Positions 11,237 through 50,967 of a stretch of 64,000 nucleotides of DNA are shown in pieces. The position numbers and the translations under genes were made by a program. This DNA is from an uncultured cyanobacterium (GTDB lineage: Bacteria > Cyanobacteriota > Cyanobacteriia > Cyanobacteriales > CAWUOF01). The notes beneath the pieces are model-generated. The model saw only the letters and a program-made list of their open reading frames with translations, was not told the origin of the DNA and made no database searches. Position 1 is the stretch's first letter. Each line of letters begins with the position of its first letter. Where the stretch lies: contig CAVUSO010000001.1 of assembly GCA_963744145.1 (NCBI GenBank), positions 544,001 through 608,000 of the forward strand, in the 5' to 3' direction.

Positions 11237-11260
11237 TAGGGGCGTAGCAATACGCTCCTG
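11237..11260. repeat. Short REP-like hairpin after the topA stop
   Basis: TAGGGGCGTAGCAATACGCTCCT, the same GTAGGGGCG-headed type as at 4683 and 38598. Confidence 0.5.
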
Positions 11261-11425
11261 AGCATAATTGTATCCATCGACGAAGCGCTAAATCTACATT
11301 TAGAGCAGGGTGAATCTATGTTATCTCTGCCTTTTACTGAATGGGGCGATCGTTAGTTGTTTTTTTATAATGATCTAAGGTTGCCTGGTTGAGTTAAAAT
11401 AAAATATCCTCAGATATTTTCAGAT

Positions 11426-11632
11426 ATGAACACAAAACTCATTGAATCCCTAGTACAAATCATTCAGGCACTTTCTGAAGAGGAGCAATTGCTCATCAAA
11501 GCAAAACTATTTAATCACATACCCTATCCTTCTACCGTGGAAATAACCCAGTTAGCCCAAAACGGAGGAGTATTTCAATTCCTGCAAGATGAACCGGATA
11601 TTTATACCCTTGAAGATGGAGAGCCAATTTAG
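11426..11632 (+). CDS. Small acidic protein, probable orphan antitoxin
   Basis: 68 aa ending DEPDIYTLEDGEPI, typical of small cyanobacterial TA partner proteins. An overlapping GTG ORF dies after 5 codons. Confidence 0.5.
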   Translation: MNTKLIESLVQIIQALSEEEQLLIKAKLFNHIPYPSTVEITQLAQNGGVFQFLQDEPDIYTLEDGEPI

Positions 11633-11659
11633 TGAAGTTAAAAAGATGAATTTGCTTTA

Positions 11660-11788
11660 AACACTTCAGAGCCAGAATTTTCTAACAATCAAAGCAACTT
11701 CCAGCACTTCTTCCGCAGAGCCATATTTACCAGTTCCCAGTTTATTTTGGAGCAATCATTCTTGGGCTTTCGTCAGAGTAATGCTCAT
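11660..11788 (-). pseudogene. ParD-like (RHH) antitoxin remnant
   Basis: Translates MSITLTKAQE*LLQNKLGTGKYGSAEEVLEVAL with an internal TGA at 11756-11758. Confidence 0.55.
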
Positions 11789-11851
11789 AAAATTTTCAGG
11801 TTATTTTGATGATTAATTAGTATAATACCTCAATTCTATTAATTTTTAACT

Positions 11852-13961
11852 ATGGTTACCTCAATAAAATCTAGCACCCCTAAATTGTTTAAATTTCGGC
11901 TTCGTACAGCTCTTGTAGTTCCCTTTGTCTGCCAAATTGCTGGGACAGTGGGATTAGTGGGATATCTTTCATTTCGGAATGGACAAGAGGCAGTCAACAA
12001 ACTTGCGAGTCAAATCAGAATCGAGACTGCGAGCCACGTCCAGCGAGTGATGGAGAACTATTTTACAGTGCCATTCAAAATAACACATAGCAACATTAAC
12101 GCATTGCGGCTTAATCAAATCAAACTTCAAGATAAAGAAGCGATCGAACAATATTTTTTCTATCAGTTTCAGGCTTTCCCTTTATCACAGGAACTCTATG
12201 TGGGAATGCCTGATGGCACTCTGATCTATGTAGTACACAAACCTAATGGCACTTTCATTGCCAATACGACTAGTATTTTTCCCAAGCGAGAAATGTATCA
12301 ACTTGATCATCAAGGTAAGCGGGGTAAGCTCATAAGTACAAGTGATTATGATTGCCGCACTCGTCCCTGGTATAAACTCGCAGTTGAGAAGCGAGGACAG
12401 GTATGGACAGATGTATATTTGTTTACAACGTTACAGAAATTGGGGATTACAGCAGCAGAACCTTATTATGATGAACAGGGTAAACTTATGGCAATTTTTA
12501 CCGGTCAATTTCCTCTAGAAGTAATCTCGGATTTTTTGGGGACTCTCAAAGTCAGCTCAACCGGACAGGTTTTTATTCTGAGATCGGACTGGACGGCTAT
12601 CTGCATCATCAACAGGAGAAAACTCCTTAGTTGGTGCGAATGGAGAACAGAATCTGTTTGACGCAGTTGAGAGTAAAAATCTTTTGACTAGTAAAACAGC
12701 ACAGTATTTAAAACAGCAGTTTAGTGATCTGAGCCAAGTTAAAGAGTTGCAAGAGTTATCTTTTGATATTGATGGTAAACGTCAATACCTGCTGGTGCAG
12801 CCTTATATTGATCCAAAGGGATTGGATTTTCTGATCGTAGTCGTTGTACCAGAAGCAGATTTTATGGAACAAGTTAATGCTAATAATCGCACCACAATTT
12901 GGCTATGTTTGCTGGCGTTGGGATTAGCGATCGCTGTAGCAATTGTGACTAGTAACTGGATTACTCGTCCGATTTTGCGAATTGCCGAAGCCTCAGAAAA
13001 GTTGGCAGAGGGAAATTTTGACCAGCATATTCTATCTAGTCAGATGATTGAAATTGCCAGACTGATAAATTCCTTTAATCTGATGGCAAAACAACTCAAA
13101 GACTCTTTTGACAAAATCACTTCAGTAATTTTGCAGGCTGATCAAGTTGGGAATCAAATCAGATTATCTACCAGCCAAATTGTTAATGGGAACCAGCAAA
13201 TAGAAGCTACCGCAGTCCAGCAAGCTACTTCAACAAATGAAGTAGGAACAACTGCCCGTCAAATTGCCTCTACTGCTGGGAAATTAGTTGAGACGACAGA
13301 AAATATTGCTGCACAAGCTACCACAACGGAATTGGCAGCGAGTCAGGGTCAAAAGAGCCTGAGCGAAATGGCTGAAGCAATGAATCAGTTGGCAGAATCT
13401 ACCAATTTAATTGTTTCTCGGCTAGAGGTAATGACGGAAAAAGCTCAGAAAATTAATAGCGTGGTGCTGACTATTTCTAAAGTAGCAGATCAGACCAATT
13501 TAATTTCTATTAACGCTAATATTGAAGCAGAAAAAGCCGGAGAGGCTGGAGTAGGTTTTGCGGTTGTGGCTAGAGAAGTGCGTCGAATGGCTGATAACTC
13601 AGCCGCGGCTTCTGGAGAAATAGAAGATATAGTCAAAGATCTTCAATTATCTGTTTCTCAGGGTATGATGGCAATGGATAAGTTCAGCCAACAAGTAGGT
13701 TACTATGTAGAACAGGTTGGTCGCATTAGTGGACAGATTGCTGAGGTAATTGAGCAAGTCCAGAGCCTGACGCCCCAATTTCACCAGATTAGTCATAGGA
13801 TGGAAGGACAATTTCAAGGAGCGCAGCAAATTAGTTTCGCGATCGCTCAATTAAGTGAAGTTTCCCAGCAAACTGTTGTATCCTTGCAAGAAACTAACCA
13901 GGCTCTACAACAATTGAATGATACCGCACAAGAACTCCAAAATGTGGTTAAATCCAGTTAA
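11852..13961 (+). pseudogene. Methyl-accepting chemotaxis protein (dCache-HAMP-MA) split by a +1 frameshift near 12581
   Basis: ORFs 11852-12661 and 12684-13961 together are colinear with the intact paralog at 14092. Removing one base near 12581 restores ...FIL-DRTGRLSASSTGEN... Confidence 0.8.
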
Positions 13962-36968: not shown

Positions 36969-38442
36969 ATGAGTTACTGTATGAATTTAAGATGTAAATA
37001 TCCGGAAAATTCTGAGTTAGATCAGAATTGTAAAAATTGCGGCTTATCTCTACTACTAAAAGGTAGGTATCGCGCGATTAAATCGATTGGTCGTGGAGGG
37101 TTTGGTAAGACTTATTTAGCAGTAGATGAAGATATTCCCTCTAAACCTAAGTGTGTGATTAAGCAACTTTCTTATCCAGATGATGATCAAGAACTTTATG
37201 AAAAAGTAGTTGAACTATTTACCCAAGAAGCCATCCGTCTAGATGAGCTAGGTAAGCATCCCCAAATCCCGACATTGTTAGCTTATTTTCACGAAAATGA
37301 ACAATTTTATTTAGTTCAAGAGCTGATTGAAGGACAGGATTTACATAAAGATTTACAACAACATGATGCTTGTACCAGAAGAAGAAATTTGGGAATTATT
37401 ACGAAGTTTACTACCCGTATTACAGTTTATTCATGAAAACAATATAATTCATCGGGATATTAAACCATCTAATATTATCCGTCGCGATCGCGATCAAAAA
37501 TTATTTTTAATTGATTTCGGAATAGCTAAACTAATCACCGGAACAGCATTATTAAAAACGGGAACACTAATCGGTAGTCCCGAATATATGTCACCGGAAC
37601 AAAACCGAGGTAAAGCTGTAATGGCTAGTGATTTATATAGTTTAGGGGTTACTTGTATCAATTTACTCACAGGAGTGCCACCCTTGGATATGTTTGATAT
37701 CAATAATGACTGTTGGGTATGGCGGAATTTTTTACTACCTGGACACCAAGTCAGCGATCGCTTAGGTAAAATTTTAGACAAACTATTACAAAGTGCGATT
37801 AGTAAGCGTTATAAATCTGCGGTGGAAGTTTTGAATGATATTAACCCACCAAAAGTTGTATTACCACAACCATTAGCACCACAACCACAACCATTAGCAC
37901 CACAACCATTACCCCCTCCCCAACCAGAATCATTCTTAGTCAAAATATTTCCCAATTTCAAGCAGAAACCCGATGTGATCATTTCTGAAATTGGGATTAA
38001 CTATCAGAAACTAACAGATTTATTAAATGCTAATAAATGGCAATCAGCAGATGAAGAAACTTGGATGATTTTATGTCAAGCTGTTGATAAACCACTGCGA
38101 GGGTATTTAGCTCCAGATAATATTGAGCATTTACCTTGTGAAGATTTATTAATCCTTGATCATCTATGGTTAAAATTTAGCAAGGGACGATTTGGATTTA
38201 GTGTGCAAAAACAGATTTTTGAAAGTGTCAATCAAGATTATGGACGTTTTTGCAAACAAGTAGGTTGGTCAATATCTTTACCTCATTATCACACCACAGG
38301 AATGATCTATAATTTGAAAGCACCCAAAGGACATTTACCTTCACGAGTATGGGTGCAAAACGGTTCTCAGTGGTGGAATCATGCTAGTGCGATCGCGAAG
38401 AAATTAGAAAGTTGTACTTCTGGTAACAACCTGGAGGGATAA
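36969..38442 (+). pseudogene. Ser/Thr protein kinase with C-terminal GUN4-like domain, split by a +1 frameshift near 37375
   Basis: ORF1 has a Cys-rich N-terminus and GRGGFGKT. ORF2 has IHRDIKPSN, DFG, YMSPE, then GUN4 motifs (W..ADEET, LPCEDL..D.LW...S.GRFGFSVQ, APKGHLP). May be a sequencing artefact. Confidence 0.8.
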
Positions 38443-38483
38443 CAATCAAGCTGAAACATTTATGGATAAAGATTAGAGCTTAG
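38356..38483 (+). repeat. 128-bp direct repeat, left island boundary
   Basis: 122/128 identical to 49764-49891. Covers the kinase 3' end and the downstream spacer. Confidence 0.95.
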
Positions 38484-38597
38484 GAATAGAAATTAAATAA
38501 TTAGCTCGCTATGGCAAGCTCCAATACCCCAACAATTATAGATAGTCCAATAATTAACCAGAATCATTAATGATCAAGGAGAACTATTAGCATTCAA

Positions 38598-38662: not shown

Positions 38663-40114
38663 TTAAAGATTTTCCTCAGCCCTAAACCTGGTATGAATTT
38701 CCTCAATAGAATTATTCATATTTTCTACGATTTTTGGATAACGTTTCTTTTGGAAAAGGAACCATCCAAACCCAGCCATGAAGTAAATTAAAACCAAGTA
38801 GGGGAGAATATTTTGAGGAAAGTCTGGAACAGGAAATAGACTACTACCAGGAATTCCAATTGTGCCAATAAAAGGCAGGAGCATAAAACTAACTGCTAAA
38901 ATAGTAAATAGCAAATTTATTGGTTGCAGTTTATTAAGTTGGAACAAGTAGACTGGTGCTGCAATGGAAACCAAAATGTACATTACCAAAAATCCAAAAG
39001 AGCAAATGATACTAAAATAATTTTGTAAGTCAAACGTACTATAGCCATATACCTTGAATAGGGAGGGGATAATCAAGATAATAAAACCTGATAAAGCGAT
39101 CGCATTGTGAGGTGTAAGATTAGTATCATGGGTTTTTCCTAAAGAATGGTGAAACCAACCATGAAGTGACATGGACAGCAATATTCGGGCTGTGAAATTA
39201 ATCGAACCGCAGACAGCAAAGAAGAAAGAAAGTACGACACCTATACTAATTATTACTCCTAAAAAATCTAATCCGATCTGATGTGCTAGAAAATCTAATG
39301 GGGCTTCTATTTTACCTAAATTTACATTAGTACCGCTAAAACCCAGCACCACAATATAGGTTATGATGATGTAGAATATACCACAAAAAATTATGCTTTG
39401 TGTCACAGCTCTAGGGATAGTCTTTAGGGGGTTTTTTGCTTCATCACCCAAAGCTGTTGCACTTTCAAAGCCAGCAAAACAGAAGACAACTAGGACAATT
39501 CCCATTGTCACTCCCCCAGGAGTGGCTCCTTGCAGGCTCAATTGATTCCAATCTATCACAAAACCTTTCTGTACTAAGATAATTAAGCCCAATAAAAGGA
39601 TCAATGCGAGGCAGACTCCTTGAACTACTAGGAGAATTTTATTGGCACGAATATCCTTAAAAGCTACATAGCAAGCTGCAACAGTACCAAGGATAAATAA
39701 GGTCAAAGTATGGGTGGTAAAACCAATATTACCTAATAATTTTTGACTAAAGATGGCAAATGCACACAATAATGCCATTGCTCCAAATAAATAGCCCAAC
39801 AGCAAAGCCCAAGCACACCAAACTCCGACATGGGGACCAAGACCCTTGATAATATATGAATATATCGAACCAGGAGAAGCGGAGCGACTAGCAAATTGGT
39901 TAATGTTGAAACTGACAAATAACAGTCCAACCATACCGATCACAAAACTTAACCATATCCCATTTCCCGCACTAGCAAAAACTAAGCTTAATATATTTGC
40001 TGGGACTGTTGTAGGTGCCATTAAGACTATAGATTGAGCAATTACTGCCTCATAGGAAAGACAGTGATTTCTTAAACCATGAGGGCTTTGATTGTTGGGA
40101 ATTTCTGTTGTCAT
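38663..40114 (-). CDS. APC-family amino acid/amine permease
   Basis: About 12 TM segments, SASPGSIYSY, FAGFESATALGDEAKNPLKTIPRA. Confidence 0.88.
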   Translation of the reverse strand: MTTEIPNNQSPHGLRNHCLSYEAVIAQSIVLMAPTTVPANILSLVFASAGNGIWLSFVIGMVGLLFVSFNINQFASRSASPGSIYSYIIKGLGPHVGVWCAWALLLGYLFGAMALLCAFAIFSQKLLGNIGFTTHTLTLFILGTVAACYVAFKDIRANKILLVVQGVCLALILLLGLIILVQKGFVIDWNQLSLQGATPGGVTMGIVLVVFCFAGFESATALGDEAKNPLKTIPRAVTQSIIFCGIFYIIITYIVVLGFSGTNVNLGKIEAPLDFLAHQIGLDFLGVIISIGVVLSFFFAVCGSINFTARILLSMSLHGWFHHSLGKTHDTNLTPHNAIALSGFIILIIPSLFKVYGYSTFDLQNYFSIICSFGFLVMYILVSIAAPVYLFQLNKLQPINLLFTILAVSFMLLPFIGTIGIPGSSLFPVPDFPQNILPYLVLIYFMAGFGWFLFQKKRYPKIVENMNNSIEEIHTRFRAEENL

Positions 40115-40471
40115 ATAGAACTAAGGTTTAGACTAATTTGGAACAAAAGGGACGTGATGGGAAAGCGATTGCCGGTCTATTCCCCTGGAAATATAAAATT
40201 GATAATTATTGCAAAAACCTCTTTTATCTATAAACCATGAATTATAAAATTGGCTCTTCAGGATCTAGTATGCTCGCACCATTAGTCCCTAATCTGTGCA
40301 GGCTAGCTGAAGATTCTAGATAAAATCTTAGCAGTGTTCTGACTGAAATGCTTGCTTTACTTCCCCATCAATACCTTGCACAGTAATACTTTGGGGATTT
40401 TTATTAAAAAATCAGCATACTAGGTAATGAAGAACCATAAAATTTTATTCTTCATGGCTTCTATCTGACAA

Positions 40472-40931
40472 TTATTTAGGGTCTATTGTTTCTAACTCAA
40501 GAATAGACAATTGTGGCGGGTAAAGAAAATAAAACTTTCCGTGGTCATGGATAAAACCCAACTGAAAAATACAAATTGGTTGAGTTTCATGAAAAGCTTT
40601 TAGTTGAAATGTTCTCACATCTAAGCCATCATTTCTCTCATCTTCTATCGATTGAGAAAAATCGCCGGGATATATCGTATCGAAATAAATTCCTAATTTT
40701 CCGACTTCTCTGAGAAAATGTTTAGCAGCTAACTGACAGCTATACCAATGACCCGGATTAGGAATAACTCCGAAGTATTTGCTATCATACCACCAATCCA
40801 TTTGACGATATAATTGCTCACTGACTAAAAAATCATCGCTTTCTTTAAATTCTTGCCAACCTTTATCTAGGCTGGTCCTGTAAAACTGGGTAAGACTTTT
40901 TAATGGTTTGCAGGAGATTTTCAGTAAACAT
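40472..40931 (-). pseudogene. ~152-aa hypothetical protein, +1 frameshifted near 40870-40900
   Basis: The ATG at 40931 (MFTENLLQTIK...) joins the 40472-40801 ORF frame if one base is removed. Confidence 0.5.
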
Positions 40932-41142
40932 GACGGCCTCGATTATAAGTCTTTCAGAACTTTAGCAAAAATTCGGACTGTAGCAACGTTAAATTTCCTA
41001 AAGTTTTGGAATAATATCCAAGTTTTCCTGTCAATACTTAACAAGTCATCGCTCTATAAGAATATATGAGTTTTTGACAACTCTAAGACAGAATTTGTGA
41101 AGTTGATTGAATTTCATTGTCAGATAACAGATGAGACCGTTC

Positions 41143-41562
41143 CTAATGGTGACTGAGATCCTTTAATGATCTAGGCACTTGTCGTACTATACCACCATTA
41201 TTGTTCCGGCCCACACTGACACAGCTAACCATAGGATATGGTTGTTCTAATAATACCATGCAACGATTGCTAAAGGCACAAATCCAAATATTACTGAGAT
41301 CAAGGAAGCATTGCGTAAGACAGACCCTAAGCCTAAACCTGCAAAGTATCCATCTAGGATTAGATAAACGGAAGTAAATCCCAGTAAGGGGAATAGCCAA
41401 GGAATATAACTTGTCAGAAGCGAAGTCACTTCACCATAATTGGTCAATACCCCAAAGACCTTCTGGGGAAAAAGGAAACACACAAGGGCACAACTGATTC
41501 CTACCTCTAAACTCCGTCCTACCGTCACCTGCCATAAGAGGAATAACTTTTCACTCGCTTGT
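41143..41562 (-). pseudogene. 3' fragment of a second MATE transporter copy
   Basis: Colinear with the C-terminus of the MATE at 43614-44070. Premature TAG after WYY. 5' part missing, cut at the MITE. Confidence 0.88.
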
Positions 41563-41563
41563 C

Positions 41564-41685
41564 GGCTCTCCCGGATGTTTGGTATAAAGAGTAGCGAATA
41601 ATACAGTTTTTCAGATAATGAAGTCTGAAAACCTTGATATAGCTATACCATAAGTTTGCGTTATCACCACAAATACGGGAGAGCC
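41564..41685. mobile_element. MITE with ~20-bp imperfect TIR
   Basis: GGCTCTCCCGGATGTTTGGT ... ACCACAAATACGGGAGAGCC. Confidence 0.7.
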
Positions 41686-41718
41686 TTTATTTCCTGCGAT
41701 TGCTATGCTACTATGGTC

Positions 41719-41748
41719 TAGTCAGTAAACTTTTCGGTTTACTGACTA
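41719..41748. promoter_or_regulatory. Perfect 12-bp inverted repeat upstream of the halogenase
   Basis: TAGTCAGTAAAC-TTTTCG-GTTTACTGACTA, 28 bp before the ATG. Confidence 0.4.
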
Positions 41749-41776
41749 TGTTATTTTCAGGTGATGGTTTAGTTAT

Positions 41777-43276
41777 ATGATAAGATTTTCAAAAATCATA
41801 GTGGTTGGTGGAGGAAGTTCTGGTTGGAGTACGGCAATATATTTGAAGCATAAATTAAGGAATTTGGACGTGACTCTTGTTGAGTCACCTACTCAAAAAA
41901 GACTAGGTGTAGGAGAATCAACTAATACAATTACAAGGCATTTCAACAAGGAAATAGGATTAGAAGAAAAGGCATTTTTAAATGAAACGACAGGATCGTT
42001 CAAGTCCGCGATTGAGTTTGTAGGTTTTAACAGGAAGGAGGGGGTTTTCTATCACCCTTTTGGTTTCCCTCTTGAAAAAGATAAGGAATTCTTCAACGAA
42101 ACGACAGGATCGTTTAAGTCCGCGATTGAGTTTGTAGATTCTACCAGGAAGGATCTGGTTTTTTATCATCCTTTTGATTTACCTCTTGAAAAATATTTGG
42201 AAAAGTACTGGTTTAAAAATAAATTTGAAAATTTGTATTATATCTATCATGTAGTAAATCGAAAAAATCTTTTCGATCCGAAAGGCAGTTATGCGTACCA
42301 TGTAGATGCAGACAAGTATAGCGAATTTTTGAGAAAAAAGTCTGTAGAGCTTGGAGTTAAGCATATTGTCGGTACAGTTGAGAATGTTCTTTTTGATGAG
42401 ATACAGAATATCAAAGCACTGCGAATTGATAACAATCAAATACTGGAAGGCGACTTGTTTGTTGATTGCTCTGGTTTTAAAGCACTGTTAATGAGTGAGG
42501 CTTATAAAGAACCGTTTTTGTCAATCGCTGATAAATTACCTAATGATTCTGCGGTAGCAACAAAAGTTCCATATATGAACCGAACTAAAGAAATGAGAGC
42601 GGTAACAACATGCTGGGCTTTAGATGAAGGCTGGGTATGGATCATTCCCCTCAAAAATCGGATTGGATCTGGTTTCGTCTATTCATCTAAGTACACTTCA
42701 AAAGAAGCAGCCGAAGAGAAACTAAGGCAATACTGGGGTATTGACAGGACAAAAGAGTTAGAAGTGTTTCATATTAAGATGAGAACTGGCAGGCATGAAA
42801 GGGCTTGGGTCAAGAATTGTGTAGCCATTGGTCCTGCTTATGGATTTATCGAACCACTGGAATCAACAGGTATTTCACTTACTCAGCATAGTATTATGAC
42901 TTTGGCCAGGGTATTAAGCAAGGGGTCATACAACGATCGGATAATTGGGCAGTTCAACAAGTATGAGGCTTCCGTATTTGATAATACAGTTGATTTTATC
43001 CAGGCGCATTATATTTTGAGCAAAAGGAAAGATTCAGCTTATTGGCAGAACTTGACGGCATCAAGTTACAACATTGAAAGTCTCAAACAAATATTGGATG
43101 AAGTGAATGCCAAGTCGTACAGGTTGATTCAAGATCAAGATACGTTCTACACTACTAATAATTGGAATGCGATCTTGTCAGGTATGGAATTCTTCAATGA
43201 AGATTTGAAATTGAAAAATTCCAGTAAACTGGAAGATTTGCCAATTTTGTCAGAATACTTGGATAGTTTGTCGTAA
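41777..43276 (+). CDS. Flavin-dependent halogenase, tryptophan halogenase family
   Basis: VVGGGSSG FAD motif, GVGEST, GSFKSAI (catalytic Lys position), FYHPFG, FVDCSGF, GWVWIIPL (WxWxIP), FIEPLESTG. Confidence 0.9.
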   Translation: MIRFSKIIVVGGGSSGWSTAIYLKHKLRNLDVTLVESPTQKRLGVGESTNTITRHFNKEIGLEEKAFLNETTGSFKSAIEFVGFNRKEGVFYHPFGFPLEKDKEFFNETTGSFKSAIEFVDSTRKDLVFYHPFDLPLEKYLEKYWFKNKFENLYYIYHVVNRKNLFDPKGSYAYHVDADKYSEFLRKKSVELGVKHIVGTVENVLFDEIQNIKALRIDNNQILEGDLFVDCSGFKALLMSEAYKEPFLSIADKLPNDSAVATKVPYMNRTKEMRAVTTCWALDEGWVWIIPLKNRIGSGFVYSSKYTSKEAAEEKLRQYWGIDRTKELEVFHIKMRTGRHERAWVKNCVAIGPAYGFIEPLESTGISLTQHSIMTLARVLSKGSYNDRIIGQFNKYEASVFDNTVDFIQAHYILSKRKDSAYWQNLTASSYNIESLKQILDEVNAKSYRLIQDQDTFYTTNNWNAILSGMEFFNEDLKLKNSSKLEDLPILSEYLDSLS

Positions 43277-43613
43277 GGATTCAGATGGGGGCAGTTGACC
43301 CCGGATTTCTCACAAAGATTTAAACAACTTGCCCAAAAAGCTTATGTAGCTTAGATTTGAGATCAGATATCCCGTCAACCTACTGTCCCCGGATTTCTCA
43401 CAAAGATATCGCTGACAAGCGAGGGATTGCAACCCAAAAACACCCTGTCATTTTTCAGCAGCGTTCATTTAGACATCCTCTACTTCCTTAGTATATTCTA
43501 CCCAGTTGCAATCCGCTAGATCTTGATACTCGACAGAAATCTTCAACGGAGTAACATTACTCAAAAGAGCCTATGAGTTTTTGCCGACTCTAAGGCAAAA
43601 TTTGCAAAGTTGA

Positions 43614-44984
43614 CTAAGCTTCGTTGCCAGATGACAGATCAGAAAGTTGCTGAGTATGACTCACATCCTTCAATGTGCCAGGCACATGCACTGCCAGCAC
43701 CACCATTCTTGTTACTGTCCACATTGACACAGCTAACCATAAGATATGGTTGTTATGATAATACCATGCAACGACTGCTAGAGGCACAAATCCAAAGATG
43801 ACTGAGATCAATGAGGCATTGCGTAAGACTTGCCCTAAAGCTAAACCTGCAAAGTATCCATCTAGGATCAGATACACTGAACTAAATCCCAGCACGGGGA
43901 ATAACCAAGGAACATAACTTGTCAGAAGCAAAGTCACTTCTTCGTAATTGGTTAATAGCCCAAAGACCTTTTGGGGAAACAGGAAACACACAAAGGCACA
44001 ACTGATTCCTACCTCTAAACTTCTTCCTACCGTCACCTGCAATAAGGGGAATAACTTTTCAATCGCTTGTTGTCCTTTAAAGTTTCCGCTCAAAGTCTCA
44101 GTGGCAAATCCGATGGCTTCAAAACAGTAGATACAAAGGAATGTTACTTGTAAGAGTAAGGCATTTTCCGCCAGGATAGTTGTCCCCATTGCAGAACCGA
44201 GAACTGTAAAAATGCTTGCGACTAACATAGTAGCCGCAGACCTGATGAAGATATTGCCATTAAGGTTAAAAGCTGCTTTAAATGCACTGACATCCCAAAT
44301 TTTTCTAGCTACACTGACAACTTCCTTCCAGTCTATTTGAAAACTCGCCAACATGATACCGACTAATAACATGAGATAGGGGCTAATGGCTTGAGACAAT
44401 CCCGCCCCCTTACTAGCCAAGTCCCAGCGGACAATAAACAGGTAGTCAAATAAAACATTAGCTCCATTACCCACCACCGACATTAGCAACACACAGCTAC
44501 TCTTTTCCCGTCCCAGAAACCACCCAATCAGAACAAAATTCATCACAACCGCAGGTGCGCCCCAAATTCGGGCGTTGAAATAGTCAATCCCTGATGCCTT
44601 AACCTCGATCGTGGCACTGATGATGCCAAACCACAACTGTTGCAAAGGATATTGCAACAACAGAATTAGTCCAGCTATACCCAATCCAATTAAAACATTT
44701 CGCAGCCCCACCAGTAGCATCTGTTCAGTGTCATTTCGTCCCACCGCCTGTGCCGTCATTCCAGTGGTTCCCATACGTAAACAGTTGACAATGAAATACA
44801 TATGGTTAAATAGTATTGTAGACAGAGTAACCCCTGCTAGATCCTCGATTTGAGTAAAATGACCCAAGAATGCTATGCTGATTGTCCCAACTAGAGGCTC
44901 CGTGATATTTGAAAGGACATTGATGAAAGCAAGTCTAAAGAAGCGAGAAAGGAAGTCATACTTTTCTGGGAGCGTTATGCTCAT
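43614..44984 (-). CDS. MATE (DinF-like) efflux transporter
   Basis: LRMGTTGMTAQAVG, ARIWGAPA, GWFLGRE, about 12 TM. The N-terminus resembles cyanobacterial secondary-metabolite MATEs such as GntT (from memory). Confidence 0.9.
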   Translation of the reverse strand: MSITLPEKYDFLSRFFRLAFINVLSNITEPLVGTISIAFLGHFTQIEDLAGVTLSTILFNHMYFIVNCLRMGTTGMTAQAVGRNDTEQMLLVGLRNVLIGLGIAGLILLLQYPLQQLWFGIISATIEVKASGIDYFNARIWGAPAVVMNFVLIGWFLGREKSSCVLLMSVVGNGANVLFDYLFIVRWDLASKGAGLSQAISPYLMLLVGIMLASFQIDWKEVVSVARKIWDVSAFKAAFNLNGNIFIRSAATMLVASIFTVLGSAMGTTILAENALLLQVTFLCIYCFEAIGFATETLSGNFKGQQAIEKLFPLLQVTVGRSLEVGISCAFVCFLFPQKVFGLLTNYEEVTLLLTSYVPWLFPVLGFSSVYLILDGYFAGLALGQVLRNASLISVIFGFVPLAVVAWYYHNNHILWLAVSMWTVTRMVVLAVHVPGTLKDVSHTQQLSDLSSGNEA

Positions 44985-44993
44985 GAATTAATC

Positions 44994-46721
44994 CTATGGT
45001 GAATTTAACGAGTTGAACAAGTGGGCTTCGTTGCTTGCTGGAGCTAAGTTTAACACATTTGTCAGGTGGTCGATTACTGAGTTAAGGTCCACAAAAGGAT
45101 TAATCAGTATACATTTCCATCCACTAATTGGTATTCCTGATTGACCGACAATCACTTGATTAGAGTAGCCTAAAATCGGTGTATTGGAACTCCTAATAAC
45201 TTGGCTTTTTCTAAAAAGATTTTGATTATATTCATTCATTTTTTGAGTAAAATTTTGATCGGCTTCACTCGTCCCAAATAACTCTCTTTTATATGCTGCT
45301 TGTGCTTCTATTCCAGTTGGATAAAATCGCCAAAGTGTACTTGTTCCAGGAATATTTTGATTCAAAACTCCAATAGAGCTATTGAAACTATATTGTAGTT
45401 GCGATTTCAAAATATTGCTTTGTTGGATAGCATAACCAATCATCGCCTGGTATCCTTCATAACCCAAGGCATAAAGATTAGCCAAAATCATTAAAGGTCC
45501 ATCTCCTGGACGGGAGGATTCAGGGGTATAAGCTCCTGGAAATGAGCAAAAACTATCCTCAGTAAAATAGGGTGTTTCCTCCCGATCTTTTTGGAGCAGT
45601 AGCATATCCTGTTTGTTCTTAAAGATTAAGGCACTAGAAATATAAGATGTCAAACCATGTTTATGGGGAGCGACTGTAATAGAATCCGCGTAACATAAAT
45701 TAGAGTAGAGGTTATTTAATTTCTCAATAGAGTTAAGCGCGTCTGGATTAAATGCTAAGGGATTGTTGGCAATTTGATAGTTTTTAAATATCCCATAAAT
45801 CCACCCGACAACTGCATCTACATGAAGGTGGGGTTTGGGAATATGATATTTTTGACAGACTGTTTCACAAATTTCAAAAACGCTTTTGATATCATCTACA
45901 CCAAAGGAATCAGTATATCCAGCAACTAAATATATGCACACAATCTGCTTCCCTTGTTGGATAGTTTCCTCAATCTGAGCTTGCAAAGCTTTCAAGGATA
46001 TCTCAAAATTGGGTGTGACCGGAACAGAGATCACATTTTCAGTCCCGATACCAAGTAATCGAGCCGCGTTGACATTAGTATAATGGCCAAGAACTGATTG
46101 GATCACGACAGGATCTTTATCTAAAAAAGCTTTGAAGCCTTTTTTTCCCAAACCAGGGAACATCTTTTCCAGAGCAAATCGAACTGCCCAATAATTACTT
46201 GCAGCTCCTCCTGATGTAAAATATCCTCCTGCTAATTTAGGGTCAAAACCGACAATTTCAGCCAGATGTGCGATCGCGAGCTGTTCAGCTTCAATTGCTT
46301 TTCCCGCATAGGTTTCACAAGCCAGATTCGGATTAATAATAGCACAAGCAATTTTGGCAAGAATTGCTGGTGTTAGAGACGGTGGAACAATATTTAAAGG
46401 AGCATAGCCTGCTGAGTAATTGGGGACATTTCCTAAATAATTGAGAATGATATGTTGAATCACCTCTTCAATCGACCAACCTTTTGTAGGAATTTGATTT
46501 ATGCCTAACTCAGATTTGATTTCTGGAGTTATTCTAGCGGTCAAATTTGTATCAGTTCGTAAGGATTTTAAGCCTGTCAATAACTGCTCAATTGCTGCCA
46601 AAAAATTACTTCCTAACCCAGCCTTGGGAAGAAGGTATTGACTGTAGGTTAAGAGCAAATTATTTAAACTCTGATTTTCCTGACTAAAATCATCTTTGCT
46701 GCGATCTGTTTGTTCAATCAT
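44994..46721 (-). CDS. Group II PLP-dependent amino acid decarboxylase
   Basis: FTSGGAASN, GHYT, AGYTDSFGVD, HLHVDA, ADSITVAPHK (Schiff-base Lys). Confidence 0.85.
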   Translation of the reverse strand: MIEQTDRSKDDFSQENQSLNNLLLTYSQYLLPKAGLGSNFLAAIEQLLTGLKSLRTDTNLTARITPEIKSELGINQIPTKGWSIEEVIQHIILNYLGNVPNYSAGYAPLNIVPPSLTPAILAKIACAIINPNLACETYAGKAIEAEQLAIAHLAEIVGFDPKLAGGYFTSGGAASNYWAVRFALEKMFPGLGKKGFKAFLDKDPVVIQSVLGHYTNVNAARLLGIGTENVISVPVTPNFEISLKALQAQIEETIQQGKQIVCIYLVAGYTDSFGVDDIKSVFEICETVCQKYHIPKPHLHVDAVVGWIYGIFKNYQIANNPLAFNPDALNSIEKLNNLYSNLCYADSITVAPHKHGLTSYISSALIFKNKQDMLLLQKDREETPYFTEDSFCSFPGAYTPESSRPGDGPLMILANLYALGYEGYQAMIGYAIQQSNILKSQLQYSFNSSIGVLNQNIPGTSTLWRFYPTGIEAQAAYKRELFGTSEADQNFTQKMNEYNQNLFRKSQVIRSSNTPILGYSNQVIVGQSGIPISGWKCILINPFVDLNSVIDHLTNVLNLAPASNEAHLFNSLNSP

Positions 46722-46733
46722 TTCTTGGCTACA

Positions 46734-48131
46734 TTAATAACTTTGAATACCGTACCTGTTATTTTGAGACCGTCTCTCTGTCACCACCATCCGCACATCC
46801 CCAGGTCCTACTTCTGGTCCTAATAGAAGTCCTCTAATCACTGGTTGGACTGGTTTGCTATCAACTAATTCCATCTGAAAACACGACAAAACTGTTGCCA
46901 AAGCCAGTTTCATTTCAAACAAGTAAAATGCCATACCAATACAGCGACGGTTACCGCCACCAAAGGGCAAATACTCAGAAGAAGCAAATTGACGTTCCAG
47001 AAAACGCTCTGGTTTAAACTGCTTTGGATTGGGATATAAATCTTGGCGATGATGAGTTAGATAAATACAGGGAATCAGGATAGTACCAGGTTCAAACTGA
47101 TAGCCCCCAATCGCTAACGGTGATTTCACCACTCGACTAAATGCCAAGATTGCCGGTGGGTAAAGGCGCAGTGTTTCACAACAGATAGCATTTAAATAGG
47201 GCAAACGAAAAATAGTATTCGGATCTGGGTTTTCACCCAAACTATCGAGTTCTTGCAGTAATTTTTCCTGCACTTCTGGCAGATGGTGAATCCAATATAA
47301 GGCCCAATATAAGGCAGTTGTAGGTGCTTCGTAACCTGCTACCAATAGCGTGATCAACTGATCGCGTAACTCTACATCCGTCATCCCCTGCCCCTGCTCA
47401 TCGCGAGCCGATATCATCAAGGAGAGAATATCACTCCGAGATGAATTATTGGGTTGCTCTTTGCGTTCCCAAATCTCAGCGTAGATGAGTTCGTCTATTT
47501 CCTGGATTTGGCCCATGAACTTTTTCCAAGGACTCCAAGAACCTAAAGCGCTTCGGAGTAATGGGAAAAGAAGCATAACAACTCTCAATAAAGGTCTCTT
47601 AGGATTGAGGATTGCAATGAAAAGTTTTTTGAGCTGTTCGTAACGTGCCCCTTCCTCTAGACTAAAGACAGCTTTTGAAATAACTTGGAAGGAAATTGCT
47701 TGCATAGAGGGCAGGACAGAAAAAGGTTCACCAAGCGGCCACTGACTCACTACTTGCTTGGTAATATCGCGGATGGTCTCACCATAAGCTAGCATTCTTT
47801 CTCCATGAAAGGGAGGTGTCAACAACTTTCGTTGTCGCTGATGAGGTTTGCCTTCCAACGCTAGCATTGATTGTCGTCCAAAAAAAGCCGAACTAAAACC
47901 TGCTGATTCACCAGAGTCCAACTGTTTTGGATCGGTGGTAAAAATCTGCTCAATCGCCTGAGGGTTACTGATAAACACTTGGGGCTGAAAAGTTGGACCA
48001 ATCCTGACAGTAAAGATATCACCATAACGTTGAGCACAAGCTTCCATGTATTCTAATGGGCTAGTAAGCCATTGGAACGTCTGTACCAAAGGGTGAGTTT
48101 GAGGACCTTCAGGTAGTTTAAGAGTAGACAT
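46734..48131 (-). CDS. Cytochrome P450 (CYP110-like)
   Basis: RKLLTPPFHG, ETLR (ExxR), FKPERF, PFGGGNRRCIG heme motif. I-helix reads AGYEAP. Confidence 0.95.
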   Translation of the reverse strand: MSTLKLPEGPQTHPLVQTFQWLTSPLEYMEACAQRYGDIFTVRIGPTFQPQVFISNPQAIEQIFTTDPKQLDSGESAGFSSAFFGRQSMLALEGKPHQRQRKLLTPPFHGERMLAYGETIRDITKQVVSQWPLGEPFSVLPSMQAISFQVISKAVFSLEEGARYEQLKKLFIAILNPKRPLLRVVMLLFPLLRSALGSWSPWKKFMGQIQEIDELIYAEIWERKEQPNNSSRSDILSLMISARDEQGQGMTDVELRDQLITLLVAGYEAPTTALYWALYWIHHLPEVQEKLLQELDSLGENPDPNTIFRLPYLNAICCETLRLYPPAILAFSRVVKSPLAIGGYQFEPGTILIPCIYLTHHRQDLYPNPKQFKPERFLERQFASSEYLPFGGGNRRCIGMAFYLFEMKLALATVLSCFQMELVDSKPVQPVIRGLLLGPEVGPGDVRMVVTERRSQNNRYGIQSY

Positions 48132-48156
48132 ATTTTCTCATATTCAATTATGGACT

Positions 48157-49506
48157 TCAATAAATATCCAAATATTCATGACGCTCCCACTCCGTCAGGT
48201 GTTCGTGAAAACGGGCTAGTTCAAAACGTTTGACCGTAGTAAAAAGGCGGACAAACTCTTGAGAGAGCATATTTTGCATTTCTCCATCAGCAGCCAGTCC
48301 AGATAAAGCTTCCTCAAGGGTTTGAGGTAACTTTGGCCAATTTGGGTCGTCTTCGCTGGGACCTGCTCCTGAAGGCTGTAGTTGACGCTGTTGTTTAATA
48401 CCTAGCAAACCCGCAGCTAGAGTCGCTGCTGCGGTGAGGTAAGGATTACTCAGACCGGAAGCGGCTCGCATTTCGATATGGGTTGATTCTTCATCGGTTA
48501 CTTTGATTCGCACCATTGCTGTACGATCTTCAATACCCCAACTGATATTGGAGGGAGCAAAAGTCTGAGGTTTGAAGCGACGATAACAATTCGGAGTAGG
48601 ACTCACTAATGGCATCATTGCCTCTCCATGATCTAAAATGCCTTGAATGAAGGCTTGAGCCGTAGCAGACAAACCATATTTGTTCTCTGGGTCAATAAAA
48701 ACATTGTTTCCAGTGTTGCGGTCAATGAGGCTGATATGAAAATGACAACAGCAACCCGCATAGTCGATAAAGGGTTTAGACATGAAGGTGGCATGATAAC
48801 CCAGCCGATAAGTAATCTCCTTGACTGCATTCTTGAAGGTAAAAGCTTTGTCCGCAGCGCCAATCCCTATGCTTGCTCCATAATTAATCTCGAATTGGGA
48901 AGGACAATGCTCGCAGTGATAGTTAATCACATCTATTCCAGAGGCACGCAGATAATTGATTAATTGACTGATTTCAGGAATATAGTTGTTGCGGGTATTA
49001 TTAAAAACGTATAGCCCATCAAAAAGTAGTTCCTTTGTTTCAGGATGGAGAAGATAGAACTCAAACTCATGCCCCATCATCACATTGAACCCCAGCTCCG
49101 CCGCTTCTGCGAGTAACTGTTTGAGGATATAACGGGGAGCAATTTCCAACGGTTCTGTTGGACTCCTCATTAGATCACAAATGACTTTGGCTGTTTTTTC
49201 CATCCAAGGTACGGGTGTTAGGGTATCAAGGTCTGGGATTAATAGTAGGTCACGGTATTTCCACTCTTCGTGATAGCCAGAACCGGGTACAACCATGGAA
49301 GCCGTATCTAAAGCCAGACAACCCCCATAAAAGTTAAGACCTTTGCGAGCAAAGCTTTCTACTTTATCAATTGGCACAACTTTTGAGCGAGCGACTCCGT
49401 GTAAATCTGGTAGCTCAAAACGGATGTACTCAATATGGTGGTTGGTTAGATATTCAACAAACTGAGGGACGCTATCAAAAGCAGTTTTTGCTTTTTCTGA
49501 CATCAT
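48157..49506 (-). CDS. Glutamine synthetase-like ligase (gamma-glutamyl-amine synthetase type)
   Basis: DLHGVARSK, HEFEFY, E..PSQFEIN, ATFMSKP, HFHISL, EMR..S..SNPYL. DLxG..RxK and divergent loops fit the PuuA/GlnA4-like group rather than GSI. Confidence 0.85.
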   Translation of the reverse strand: MMSEKAKTAFDSVPQFVEYLTNHHIEYIRFELPDLHGVARSKVVPIDKVESFARKGLNFYGGCLALDTASMVVPGSGYHEEWKYRDLLLIPDLDTLTPVPWMEKTAKVICDLMRSPTEPLEIAPRYILKQLLAEAAELGFNVMMGHEFEFYLLHPETKELLFDGLYVFNNTRNNYIPEISQLINYLRASGIDVINYHCEHCPSQFEINYGASIGIGAADKAFTFKNAVKEITYRLGYHATFMSKPFIDYAGCCCHFHISLIDRNTGNNVFIDPENKYGLSATAQAFIQGILDHGEAMMPLVSPTPNCYRRFKPQTFAPSNISWGIEDRTAMVRIKVTDEESTHIEMRAASGLSNPYLTAAATLAAGLLGIKQQRQLQPSGAGPSEDDPNWPKLPQTLEEALSGLAADGEMQNMLSQEFVRLFTTVKRFELARFHEHLTEWERHEYLDIY

Positions 49507-49763
49507 TATTTTTAGCCAATCTGAGTGATTAATATATGTTAATTTATTGTACAGTAAGAATTAACTAGCTAATGAAATAAGAAAAATAAATAAATTTTTC
49601 TTATTAATTTAAAAAAATAGATAAACTTTGATAATAAATTATCCGGAAAAAGGAATTAAGGACTTGCAAATAGATAGTGGTAAATATGTAGTAAAATTTA
49701 AATATATTAATTAAATAGTATTACTATACTTATCACTATTTCATCATAGTTTGTATGGTAGTC

Positions 49764-49891
49764 CAAAACGGTTCTCAGTGGTGGAATCATGCTAATGCGA
49801 TCGCGAAGAAATTAGCAGTTTGTACTTCTGGTAACAACCTGGAAAGATAACAATCAAGCTGAAACATTTATGGATAAAGATTAGAGCTTAG
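49764..49891 (+). repeat. 128-bp direct repeat, right island boundary
   Basis: Orphan copy of the kinase-GUN4 3' end. Its last bases overlap the stop codon of the convergent histidine kinase. Confidence 0.95.
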
Positions 49892-50967
49892 TGAATAATA
49901 AGAATCGGTAGACGGAATGCAAAAACCGCACCATGAGGAGAACGGTTTTCTGCCCAAATAGTACCACCATGTGTTTCGACAATTTGACGAGTTAAATATA
50001 ATCCTAACCCTGAACCTTTAGCTTGGCGATCACTATATCCTTGATAAAAGCGCTCAAATAAATATGGCAATTGTTCCGGAAGAATTCCCGCACCAGAATC
50101 GATAATTTTAGCAGTATGATAGCGGGAACCTGACTCTAAAACCACCTCCACTTTGCTACCCCGAAGAGAGTGGTTAATCGCATTAGTCAGTAGATTAGTA
50201 AACACCCGACTAAGTTGAAAAGCATCTCCATTGACCCAAAGAAACTGACGAAAATCTGAAGTACCATAGTTAAAAGAGATATGAACACGACGACTTAAAG
50301 ATAGTCCTACTAATGTGGTGGTGACATCATGAGCAATTTCGACTAGATCAACTGGTGCTAATTTAAGGTTTAATCCCTCAGTATCATTGCGATAAATATC
50401 TAAGAGTGTTTCTACCAGTTGTAAGCTAGTTTGATGACTGCGAATAATTGTTTCTATTACTACTTTTTGAGCAGGTTGTATCGAGCCTAAATATCCTCTT
50501 TGAAAAGCTTCTAAAGTTTCAATTGCTCCTAATAAAGGTGTTTTCAAATCATGGGTTAGTGTTGAAGCAAAATCCTCACGTAACAGAGCTAATTTTTCTT
50601 GAGCTTGCAATTTAGCTTCTTGTTGCAATAGTTTTTGGTGATACTTGTGATTGCGATCGCTCAGAATTGCAGTTACAATCAATGCGATCGCTGCAATTAA
50701 CCGACTCGCAATAGTTGATGCGATCGCTGGATAGTAACCAGGAATCCAAATATTCAAAATTGTCAACAGACAAGCGATCGCGGTTATTGACAAAGTTGCA
50801 ACTTGACCAAAACGATAATTGACTAGTAGTATTGGACCAATATACAGATAACCAAATACATAGTCTGGTGGAGTTGCAAACTCCATTACCCCAACAGTTA
50901 TCGATACTCCAATAATGAACCATAGGTTACCCAAAGGTAAACGTTTAAAAAGTTTTAAAAGTAGCAT
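49888..50967 (-). CDS. Membrane sensor histidine kinase divergent from kdp
   Basis: About 4 N-terminal TM segments, THDLKTPL, NAINHS, DSGAGI, GSGLGL. Confidence 0.88.
   Translation of the reverse strand: MLLLKLFKRLPLGNLWFIIGVSITVGVMEFATPPDYVFGYLYIGPILLVNYRFGQVATLSITAIACLLTILNIWIPGYYPAIASTIASRLIAAIALIVTAILSDRNHKYHQKLLQQEAKLQAQEKLALLREDFASTLTHDLKTPLLGAIETLEAFQRGYLGSIQPAQKVVIETIIRSHQTSLQLVETLLDIYRNDTEGLNLKLAPVDLVEIAHDVTTTLVGLSLSRRVHISFNYGTSDFRQFLWVNGDAFQLSRVFTNLLTNAINHSLRGSKVEVVLESGSRYHTAKIIDSGAGILPEQLPYLFERFYQGYSDRQAKGSGLGLYLTRQIVETHGGTIWAENRSPHGAVFAFRLPILIIH

Follow-up and report, generated by a model that had tools for sequence, protein, structure and literature searches.

In the isopropylamine pathway of Pseudomonas sp. 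KIE171, IpuC is the γ-glutamylisopropylamide synthetase and IpuD is a cytochrome P450; glutamyl acts in this pathway as a handle or cap. Here we describe a gene cluster in a 64,000-nt window of contig CAVUSO010000001.1 from an uncultured filamentous cyanobacterium (hereafter the window; all coordinates are window positions). A ligase of the glutamine synthetase (GS) fold, a cytochrome P450, a divergent pyridoxal phosphate (PLP)-dependent decarboxylase and a MATE efflux transporter stand side by side in this cluster, next to a flavin-dependent halogenase and an amino-acid permease. Sequence comparison with related assemblies supports ligase–P450–decarboxylase–MATE as a real, conserved unit that is independent of nonribosomal peptide synthetases (NRPS) and polyketide synthases (PKS). 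The cluster would share the logic of the Ipu pathway, in which a primary amine is first γ-glutamylated by a GS-fold ligase and the resulting amide is then hydroxylated by a P450. The Ipu pathway is catabolic, however, and includes a γ-glutamyl hydrolase and dehydrogenases, whereas the cluster described here has a decarboxylase, an exporter and a ring-tailoring enzyme instead.

PuuA of E. coli, GlnA2–4 of Streptomyces and PauA of Pseudomonas share with the cluster ligase a GS fold in which the catalytic residues are kept and the ammonium site is changed. These known enzymes serve nitrogen and carbon utilisation, whereas the cluster ligase scores 255 bits against the PuuA model NF045547, below its cut-off of 650, and belongs to a separate cyanobacterial subfamily (62–90% identity).

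The plant route to serotonin and melatonin uses a tryptophan decarboxylase, a tryptamine 5-hydroxylase of the P450 type, an N-acetyltransferase and an O-methyltransferase (OMT). The version of the cluster found in Limnofasciculus and Microcoleus would have the same four kinds of step, namely a PLP decarboxylase, a P450, an N-acylation and a phenol-type OMT. There, however, an ATP-dependent GS-fold ligase would attach γ-glutamyl as the N-acyl group in place of acetyl; the enzymes are unrelated in sequence to those of plants, and the window has a halogenase and not an OMT. Aetokthonotoxin of Aetokthonos hydrillicola, one of several NRPS-independent halogenated indole products, is made by a cyanobacterial NRPS/PKS-independent route in which a flavin-dependent halogenase and a P450 act on a tryptophan-derived scaffold, which resembles what is proposed here. 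Unlike that route, the present cluster has neither a tryptophanase nor a nitrile synthase, and we found no sequence evidence of orthology. The aet cluster is not known to include a GS-like ligase, a group II decarboxylase or a MATE. The early steps of valanimycin biosynthesis are catalyzed by the valine decarboxylase VlmD and by VlmH, an isobutylamine N-hydroxylase of the acyl-CoA dehydrogenase (ACAD) fold. A PLP decarboxylase also adjoins an ACAD-fold flavin monooxygenase-like protein in relatives of the cluster decarboxylase from genome family f7. This pairing occurs in those relatives and not in the window, however, it feeds PKS/NRPS lines there, and the likeness is one of gene kind.

Gene layout and recurrence of the core

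Families of the open reading frames (ORFs) were assigned by Pfam and NCBIfam profile scans against curated cut-offs. The six genes of the cluster are:

48157–49506, minus strand: GS-like ligase (449 aa; Pfam Gln-synt_C 283 bits)
46734–48131, minus strand: cytochrome P450 (465 aa; Pfam p450 280 bits)
44994–46721, minus strand: divergent group II (fold type I) PLP decarboxylase-family enzyme (575 aa; Pfam Pyridoxal_deC 73 bits, weak)
43614–44984, minus strand: MATE efflux transporter (456 aa; Pfam MatE 97 bits)
41777–43276, plus strand: flavin-dependent halogenase of the tryptophan-halogenase family (499 aa; Pfam Trp_halogenase 399 bits)
38663–40114, minus strand: APC-family amino-acid permease (483 aa; Pfam AA_permease 104 bits)

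The four core genes are separated by 25 bp (GS–P450), 12 bp (P450–decarboxylase) and 9 bp (decarboxylase–MATE), and the halogenase gene is opposite to them in strand and convergent with the MATE gene. An earlier note on this DNA, made from the sequence alone, had given these six ORFs and three gaps, and the ORF list places them at exactly the same coordinates. Its six family assignments also hold, since every Pfam match passes the cut-off, weakly in the case of the decarboxylase (73 bits). The note had further described the cluster as free of NRPS and PKS, and indeed 38–51 kb contains no NRPS or PKS ORF. It had not recorded the strand of the halogenase gene or four features described below: the two gene remnants, the halogenase duplication, the direct repeats and the histidine-kinase remnant. 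A scan for promoters and terminators was uninformative, with 40 promoter-like sites (38.9 expected) and 11 terminator-like sites (9.6 expected).

Relatives were sought by a scan of genome contigs, in a phylum-wide sample of 401 cyanobacterial genomes that includes the window's own, in 40 related genomes, in the 389 genomes of family f7 and in Logan contigs. For the sequencing runs X2, X5 and X9 the evidence comes from contigs aligned to the window, and their genes are named from the stretch of the window that each contig piece covers. The scan of genome contigs with the decarboxylase returned two loci, both 90–91% identical. In the first, from Limnofasciculus baicalensis BBK-W-15 (L009), the order is GS, decarboxylase, an OMT gene on the opposite strand, MATE, P450 and a small gene, termed orf152, for a conserved protein of 152 aa. 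The second, from Microcoleus anatoxicus PTRS2 (L010), has a P450 gene truncated by the contig end, the decarboxylase, the same OMT as in Limnofasciculus and the MATE, followed by an MFS gene; the GS orthologue of this strain (90–92%) is split across two contig ends. In run X2 ("organism A"), a 10-kb contig has, in the direction of coding, the order GS, decarboxylase, 1373 unmatched nt, MATE, a halogenase on the opposite strand and P450. The unmatched gap is similar in size to the OMT-bearing gap of Limnofasciculus (1396 nt) and may likewise be OMT-like, as judged by length alone. Runs X5 and X9, both mat metagenomes, each yield a 9-kb contig with the order orf152, GS, P450, decarboxylase, MATE and with no halogenase.

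The four core genes are therefore co-located in all four related assemblies that offer enough contiguous sequence (L009, X2, X5 and X9), and the six assemblies represent five distinct variants in which the core is kept together in at least four gene orders. Three variants carry orf152 with the core (the window, Limnofasciculus and the form shared by X5 and X9). The halogenase is found in two of the five (the window and X2), and an OMT lies beside the decarboxylase in two, possibly three. The earlier note had placed all six genes in one candidate cluster. The grouping stands for the four core genes; the halogenase is present in a minority of variants and the permease is not conserved with the core. 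We regard the halogenase as an exchangeable tailoring cassette and not as a core gene.

Both the ligase and the decarboxylase are rare. The ligase is found in 2 of the 401 phylum-sample genomes including its own (E ≤ 1e-120), in 0 of the 40 relatives (E ≤ 1e-80) and in 4 of the 389 f7 genomes. Three phylum-sample genomes including the window's own have the decarboxylase (E ≤ 1e-40), and the copies of the other two are just 28–31% identical; the best match in the 40 related genomes is 29%, with no close relative among them. As these two rare enzymes stand together with a P450 and a MATE in every sufficiently contiguous related assembly, the grouping goes beyond chance. That unrelated genes were thrown together here by chance is hardly credible, since five arrangements combine the two rare families with orthologues of one P450 and one MATE; the comparative data already contradict it, and the spacing of 9–25 bp also speaks against it.

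Further features mark the borders and the interior of the cluster:

38353–38483: left direct repeat, 131 nt (3' end of a kinase–GUN4 gene and the spacer behind it)
38514–38560, minus strand: 5'-end remnant of a histidine-kinase gene, 47 nt (87% identical to 50876–50922)
40472–40933, minus strand: frame-disrupted homologue of orf152 (match to L009:7992–8450)
about 41058–41570, minus strand: 3' fragment of a second MATE gene, a pseudogene (nucleotide and protein match to the intact MATE)
49761–49891: right direct repeat, 131 nt (duplicated kinase–GUN4 3' end and spacer; abuts the intact histidine-kinase gene)
49888–50967: intact histidine-kinase gene, right flank of the block

The two direct repeats are 95% alike over 131 nt and enclose the whole 11.3-kb block, and the 47-nt histidine-kinase remnant sits at its left edge. 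The order is thus kinase–GUN4 gene, deleted histidine-kinase copy, 11.3-kb block, duplicated kinase–GUN4 tail and intact histidine kinase. Outside the block a Ser/Thr-kinase–GUN4 gene lies on the left, and on the right the histidine kinase is followed by kdp genes. The pattern of repeats and remnant is the footprint of an insertion by homologous recombination, or of a duplication. Because repeats and remnant enclose the block, all six genes lie within one inserted block. Cluster proteins of the window are 88–92% identical to those of Limnofasciculus and Microcoleus, whereas canonical GlnA, a very conserved protein, is just 85–86% identical. The higher likeness of the cluster proteins, together with the repeats and the kinase remnant, argues for transfer as a unit, and we regard the block at about 38.5–49.8 kb as a horizontally acquired island.

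The left-hand Ser/Thr-kinase–GUN4 gene is itself split into overlapping ORFs on the plus strand (36969–37436 and 37327–38442). The first holds the kinase N-lobe and the second the remaining kinase and GUN4, and the split is likely a frameshift.

Enzymes of the core

The ligase belongs to the Gln-synt_C catalytic-domain family and is not the glutamine synthetase of its genome. Against the GlnA model TIGR00653 it scores 250 bits in the protein scan and 196 in the genome scan (cut-off 429), while the true GlnA of the same genome (C1:230294–231688) reaches 689 bits. The best of four GS models is that of the type III glutamate–ammonia ligase or GmaS-like enzymes, TIGR03105, at 291 bits and still below the cut-off of 469.6. 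Among solved structures, a glutamate–methylamine ligase (9qur) matches at 175 bits and 4hpp, titled "probable glutamine synthetase", at 80 bits. We aligned the genome's own GlnA with eight members of the subfamily, the ligase and seven others. Residues E147, E149, E199, E206, H255, H257, R310, R328, R333, E345 and R347 are invariant in this alignment, canonical GlnA included, and the ligase retains the counterparts of the GlnA ligands for metal, ATP and glutamate. The ammonium site is changed in all eight subfamily members: FDGSS becomes PGSGYH, the stretch with the GYFPV tyrosine has been lost and Phe stands opposite the flap Glu. From the GS literature we take the Asp and Ser of FDGSS, the Tyr of GYFPV and the flap Glu to form the ammonium site, and we assume the roles of the metal, ATP and glutamate ligands in the same way. 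Kept catalytic residues with an altered ammonium site are the pattern described for γ-glutamyl-amine ligases. The enzyme is predicted from its sequence to be a γ-glutamyl:amine ligase.

In a genus with an 82–83% ligase orthologue, one genome (L100; G453:C285, 8553–9755) has an IS605-type TnpB gene where its sister genome (L099) has an APC permease. Downstream of the ligase homologue of genome G506, described below, lie a SET-domain gene and a gene with ATP-grasp and cNMP-binding domains.

The decarboxylase scores 73 bits against PF00282 (gathering score 27) and so belongs to this family. It stays below the cut-off of all six named NCBIfam equivalogs tried (among them the MfnA, PanP, DABA, Tyr and His decarboxylases), the best being MfnA at 75 against 299 bits. 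All 12 aligned members share the PLP lysine K354 in the HK motif, D302, H213 and Y385, the last of these 31 residues past K354. By position, D302 would contact the pyridine nitrogen, H213 would be the stacking His and Y385 the catalytic-loop Tyr, and these residues would favor true decarboxylation over aldehyde synthesis. The best solved match is an entry titled as a diaminobutyrate enzyme (76 bits), followed by a noncanonical aromatic amino-acid decarboxylase (59 bits) and glutamate decarboxylase (57 bits).

A collection of 5.8 billion proteins contains 18 that are at least 41% identical to the decarboxylase, and none of the 106 matches among 72,556 plasmids is close, all being below 60% identity. 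Orthologues of 65–74% identity occur in 5 of the 389 f7 genomes (loci L090–L094 in G539, G616, G758, G479 and G602), within PKS/NRPS clusters. In three of these five loci a complete gene for a 372-aa protein stands beside the decarboxylase, and a fourth has a 151-aa ORF cut there by the contig end. The copy from L090, the only one searched, gives weak best matches to ACAD-fold monooxygenases such as DszC. The PKS/NRPS setting and the adjoining monooxygenase-like gene place the decarboxylase family in specialised metabolism, paired with an oxygenase. A 29%-identical relative on a Bacillus cereus plasmid adjoins an NRPS and an aldo/keto reductase gene, a setting that is suggestive of secondary metabolism only. 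Among the f7 loci, one cluster has a PKS with a built-in aminotransferase; another places the decarboxylase beside a GNAT acetyltransferase gene and also contains genes for a class III aminotransferase and an EPSP-synthase-like protein.

The P450 belongs to PF00067 and shows the motifs FGGGNRRCIG, AGYEAPTT and ETLR, which we take to be the haem-cysteine loop, the acid–alcohol pair of the I-helix and the ExxR motif. It comes from a multi-paralogue cyanobacterial family that is present in 35 of the 40 relatives. The cluster form is 88–89% identical in L009 and L010, and the next-best match among the 40 relatives is 59%. Orthologues of the MATE are 89–90% identical in L009 and L010, whereas its four paralogues within its own genome range from 42 to 72%.

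The MATE passes the GntT model NF041358 (621 bits, cut-off 525), as does its Limnofasciculus orthologue (L009:4966–6327; 627 bits). The possibility that it marks a guanitoxin cluster was dropped, as the name rests on transporter similarity only. A GS-like ligase, P450, decarboxylase or halogenase of this kind is not known from the guanitoxin cluster. Passes of this model by MATEs outside guanitoxin clusters are a likely source of misleading automatic names.

Halogenase, OMT and neighboring gene remnants

The halogenase belongs to PF04820, and its best solved relatives are tryptophan 5-, 6- and 7-halogenases at 243–286 bits (Th-Hal 5lv9, PyrH 2wet, Thal 6h43, RebH 2e4g and PrnA 2apg), with VirX1 (6qgm) also among them. 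The best entry titled only as a "putative" or "family" tryptophan halogenase scores 208 bits. The motifs GGGSSG and WVWIIP, the Lys of SFKSAIEF and the Glu of EPLEST are present, presumably for dinucleotide/flavin binding, as the WxWxIP motif and as the catalytic Lys and Glu; K76, W286, W288, P291 and E359–T364 are invariant across 40 aligned homologues. Counted without an internal duplication, the protein has 461 residues against 511–551 in the solved enzymes, some 50–90 fewer, and the match of most solved enzymes stops near residue 425, so that the C-terminal substrate module is not alignable. Since the match ends there and the protein is shorter, PrnA/RebH-like binding of free tryptophan is not claimed.

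The internal duplication is an in-frame tandem repeat of 114 nt (38 aa) at nt 41964–42191, with copies 86% alike. All invariant residues are intact in the first copy; in the second, an invariant Gly and an invariant Phe are replaced. The nearest natural homologues are three proteins at 69–79% identity, followed by proteins at 42% or less, and the duplication is missing from these three. The possibility of an assembly artefact was dropped, since the X2 contig has a duplication of the same length. The duplication is real and has been retained in two lineages.

Between the halogenase and the permease lie the two gene remnants. The MATE fragment is 75–88% identical to 43565–43998 and 83% identical to MATE residues 303–429, with one internal TAG. 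The orf152 homologue has an open ORF at 40472–40801 (109 aa) that corresponds to the C-terminal two thirds, with about 20 N-terminal codons in another frame, and it is 76% identical to L009:7992–8450 from Met45 on. The halogenase stretch of X2 differs from that of the window by 3.5% (96.5% identical), while the core genes differ by 8–11.5%. As the halogenase has diverged less than the core, the cassette has moved more recently than the core; recombination of two cluster variants would agree with the diverged MATE fragment at its side.

These remnants also bear on a reading in which the core is functional and the halogenase arm of this strain is a non-functional recombination scar, so that only the unhalogenated core product is made and the permease is a passenger. 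We think this unlikely. It would account for a duplication that is unique among the four closest proteins and alters invariant residues in its second copy, for the stop-bearing MATE fragment and the frameshifted orf152 homologue next door, and for a permease that lacks a counterpart in two related genomes. Yet the duplication is in frame and its first copy is intact. In the AlphaFold2 (AF2) model of the halogenase (mean pLDDT 90.9) the core is confident and the second copy forms a low-confidence insert (residues 101–140, pLDDT 40–59). A homologue, P0153, naturally carries an insert there that is about as long, and X2 has kept the duplication within an almost identical halogenase. The scars of the halogenase arm are possibly tolerated.

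The OMT that takes the place of the halogenase in Limnofasciculus and Microcoleus has 6c5b, CalO6, AlpH and MmcR as its best solved relatives, which we take to be methyltransferases of aromatic hydroxyl groups.

Every NCBIfam equivalog scores far below its cut-off for the APC permease, and no homologue is found at E ≤ 1e-20 in the two related genomes G764 and G765. X5 and X9 have a 93% copy on a separate contig of equal depth. The permease lies inside the island and outside the conserved set.

The orf152 family has 49 representatives at E ≤ 1e-3, with invariant Pro, Gly, Arg and Phe and an H-x-H motif; fusions to a cupin, pterin-4a-dehydratase or DUF402 domain occur in part of the family. Searches of Pfam, NCBIfam and the Atlas gave no family and no usable match. 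The AF2 model is of high confidence (pLDDT 93.8), and fold searches gave no convincing match (best Foldseek E of 0.076 in the PDB; best VIA-wide Z of 4.2, with a root-mean-square deviation of 4.3 over 84 residues).

Proposed pathway and alternatives

An inspection of the cluster suggests an NRPS-independent pathway to an exported, hydroxylated γ-glutamyl arylalkylamine, probably derived from indole and halogenated in this strain, a proposal that we hold to be evenly balanced. The divergent PLP decarboxylase would convert an amino acid, most likely aromatic and probably tryptophan, to the amine. The ligase would activate the γ-carboxyl of glutamate with ATP and join it to the amine in place of ammonia. 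The P450 might oxidise either the amine or the γ-glutamyl amide, ring hydroxylation being the simplest conversion. Tailoring would be variable, with a phenol-type OMT in Limnofasciculus and Microcoleus and a tryptophan-halogenase-family enzyme in this strain and the X2 organism, and the MATE pump would export the product. The product of this strain would be a halogenated, oxidised N-γ-glutamyl arylalkylamine, similar to an indolamine. The most economical order, borrowed from the Ipu pathway, would be decarboxylation, γ-glutamylation, hydroxylation by the P450, O-methylation or halogenation, and export. The sequences show which genes are present, how they are spaced and reshuffled, where the island ends and that the catalytic motifs are intact; substrate, order of steps and product are inferred, and so is the fate of the glutamyl group, which may stay on the end product or be a cap that is later removed.

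An aromatic scaffold is suggested because ring-tailoring enzymes of two independent kinds replace each other while the rest of the core stays 90% identical, and the halogenase, being of the tryptophan-halogenase-like family, tips the scaffold toward indole. The exporter, and the lack of any γ-glutamyl hydrolase or dehydrogenase, favor biosynthesis over catabolism; we found no γ-glutamyl amide hydrolase or downstream dehydrogenase in 38–51 kb, nor in L009 or L010. The earlier note had proposed an NRPS-independent route from an amino acid to a halogenated, oxidised amine. The core parts do fit decarboxylation, γ-glutamylation, oxidation and export, while the halogenase and the permease fall outside the core of such a route.

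Several observations weigh against this pathway. The decarboxylase is too divergent for its substrate to be read from sequence. In all five f7 loci with a 65–74% decarboxylase orthologue, no GS, P450, MATE, halogenase, OMT or APC homologue is present in the fetched 12–19 kb, so that the enzyme stands there apart from GS, P450 and MATE. None of 79 metagenome loci of distant relatives (29–52%) has a GS, P450 or MATE, and no partner gene among those tested is shared by these loci. A ligase homologue of 70% identity stands alone among housekeeping genes in G185. In genome G456, of another genus, the 82% ligase orthologue has as neighbors an APC permease homologue (48%) and a second GS paralogue, a setting more in keeping with uptake or utilisation. 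Among the ORFs and domains of the island there is neither a flavin reductase nor a ferredoxin partner. The altered second copy of the halogenase duplication counts in the same direction, and, taken with the frameshifted orf152 and the MATE fragment, it means that the tailoring arm may be partly dead. These unlinked homologues show that each enzyme family also serves in other settings. It is notable that ligase and oxygenase, and likewise decarboxylase and oxygenase, are repeatedly found as pairs.

The G456 setting is in line with an alternative in which an exogenous amine or amino acid is taken up and used or detoxified in a γ-glutamyl-dependent manner, as in the Puu and Ipu systems. The permease would import the substrate, the ligase would γ-glutamylate it, the P450 would hydroxylate the amide and other genes would complete the breakdown. 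The ligase–P450 logic of the Pseudomonas isopropylamine pathway agrees with this, as does the fact that members of the ligase family lie mostly outside clusters. We consider it rather improbable, as the ORF and domain scan of the island finds no γ-glutamyl hydrolase, aldehyde dehydrogenase or amine oxidase, and a decarboxylase produces an amine and does not consume it. Moreover, it is the exporter and not the permease that is conserved with the core, and tailoring by an OMT or a halogenase is typical of biosynthesis.

A second alternative places the oxidation on nitrogen. The P450 would N-hydroxylate the amine and the ligase would add glutamate to the resulting hydroxylamine, which would give an N-substituted γ-glutamyl hydroxamate able to bind metal, or a precursor of N–N or N–O bonds. 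Glutamine synthetases accept hydroxylamine, which is the basis of their classical assay, and GS-like ligases handle hydrazine or hydroxylamine intermediates in some N–N pathways. The f7 decarboxylase beside the 372-aa gene, whose one searched copy is ACAD-fold monooxygenase-like, parallels the valanimycin pair, and in G506 (locus L101, C1:5789500–5809400, 9869–13085) a 62% ligase homologue lies 12 bp from two overlapping genes for PhyH-type Fe/2-oxoglutarate dioxygenases. The phenol-type OMT and the Trp-type halogenase indicate ring chemistry instead, the P450 sequence carries no sign of N-hydroxylation, and the island holds no further N–N-forming enzyme; we judge this alternative very improbable.

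Returning to the pathway with ring chemistry, a bolder version of it can be drawn. Exported γ-glutamyl indolamines would then form a new family that benthic mat-forming filamentous cyanobacteria share by horizontal transfer, a bacterial counterpart of the serotonin/melatonin route in which glutamate, put on by an ATP-dependent GS-fold ligase, would replace acetate as the cap. A plug-in cassette with an OMT, a halogenase or both would diversify a signal or allelochemical, and orf152 with its H-x-H motif would be a new pathway enzyme, for example one that removes or rearranges the cap. We offer this as speculation that is doubtful as a whole.

The earlier note could not match this gene set to a known pathway, and our literature search, made by keyword and organism name outside subscription journals and MIBiG, likewise found no paper that describes it and no characterised match. 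No matching pathway appears in the passages of PMC13283753 that we consulted. [quoted passage not shown] A word search of the accessible text of its supplement returned no decarboxylase, P450, halogenase or contig-name match. The cluster thus looks like an undescribed, horizontally mobile and minimal cluster family. Its component families are already known, and there is precedent for the logic of γ-glutamylation followed by a P450.

Rule-based genome mining seeks NRPS, PKS, RiPP and terpene signatures, and this cluster has none of them. If the proposed pathway is true, the four genes would be a transferable module for γ-glutamyl-capped amines, with exchangeable halogenase and methyltransferase cassettes, in mat-forming cyanobacteria that also produce anatoxins. 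It would offer a new class of small exported metabolites to seek in benthic mats, a GS-fold ligase with an aromatic-amine pocket and possible biocatalytic use, and a natural case of cassette swapping in a minimal pathway. L. baicalensis BBK-W-15 and M. anatoxicus PTRS2, both in culture, have the cluster, so that the proposal can be tested directly.

The genome of the window has a second NRPS-independent gene set on one strand (L097, 8223–13616; G000:C1:5527000–5533000). It comprises a MATE of 473 aa (51% identical to the island MATE), an OMT of 377 aa (40% identical to the Limnofasciculus OMT), a sulfotransferase present as two ORFs and a canonical group II decarboxylase of 520 aa (Pfam 258 bits), and it looks like a parallel amine pathway.

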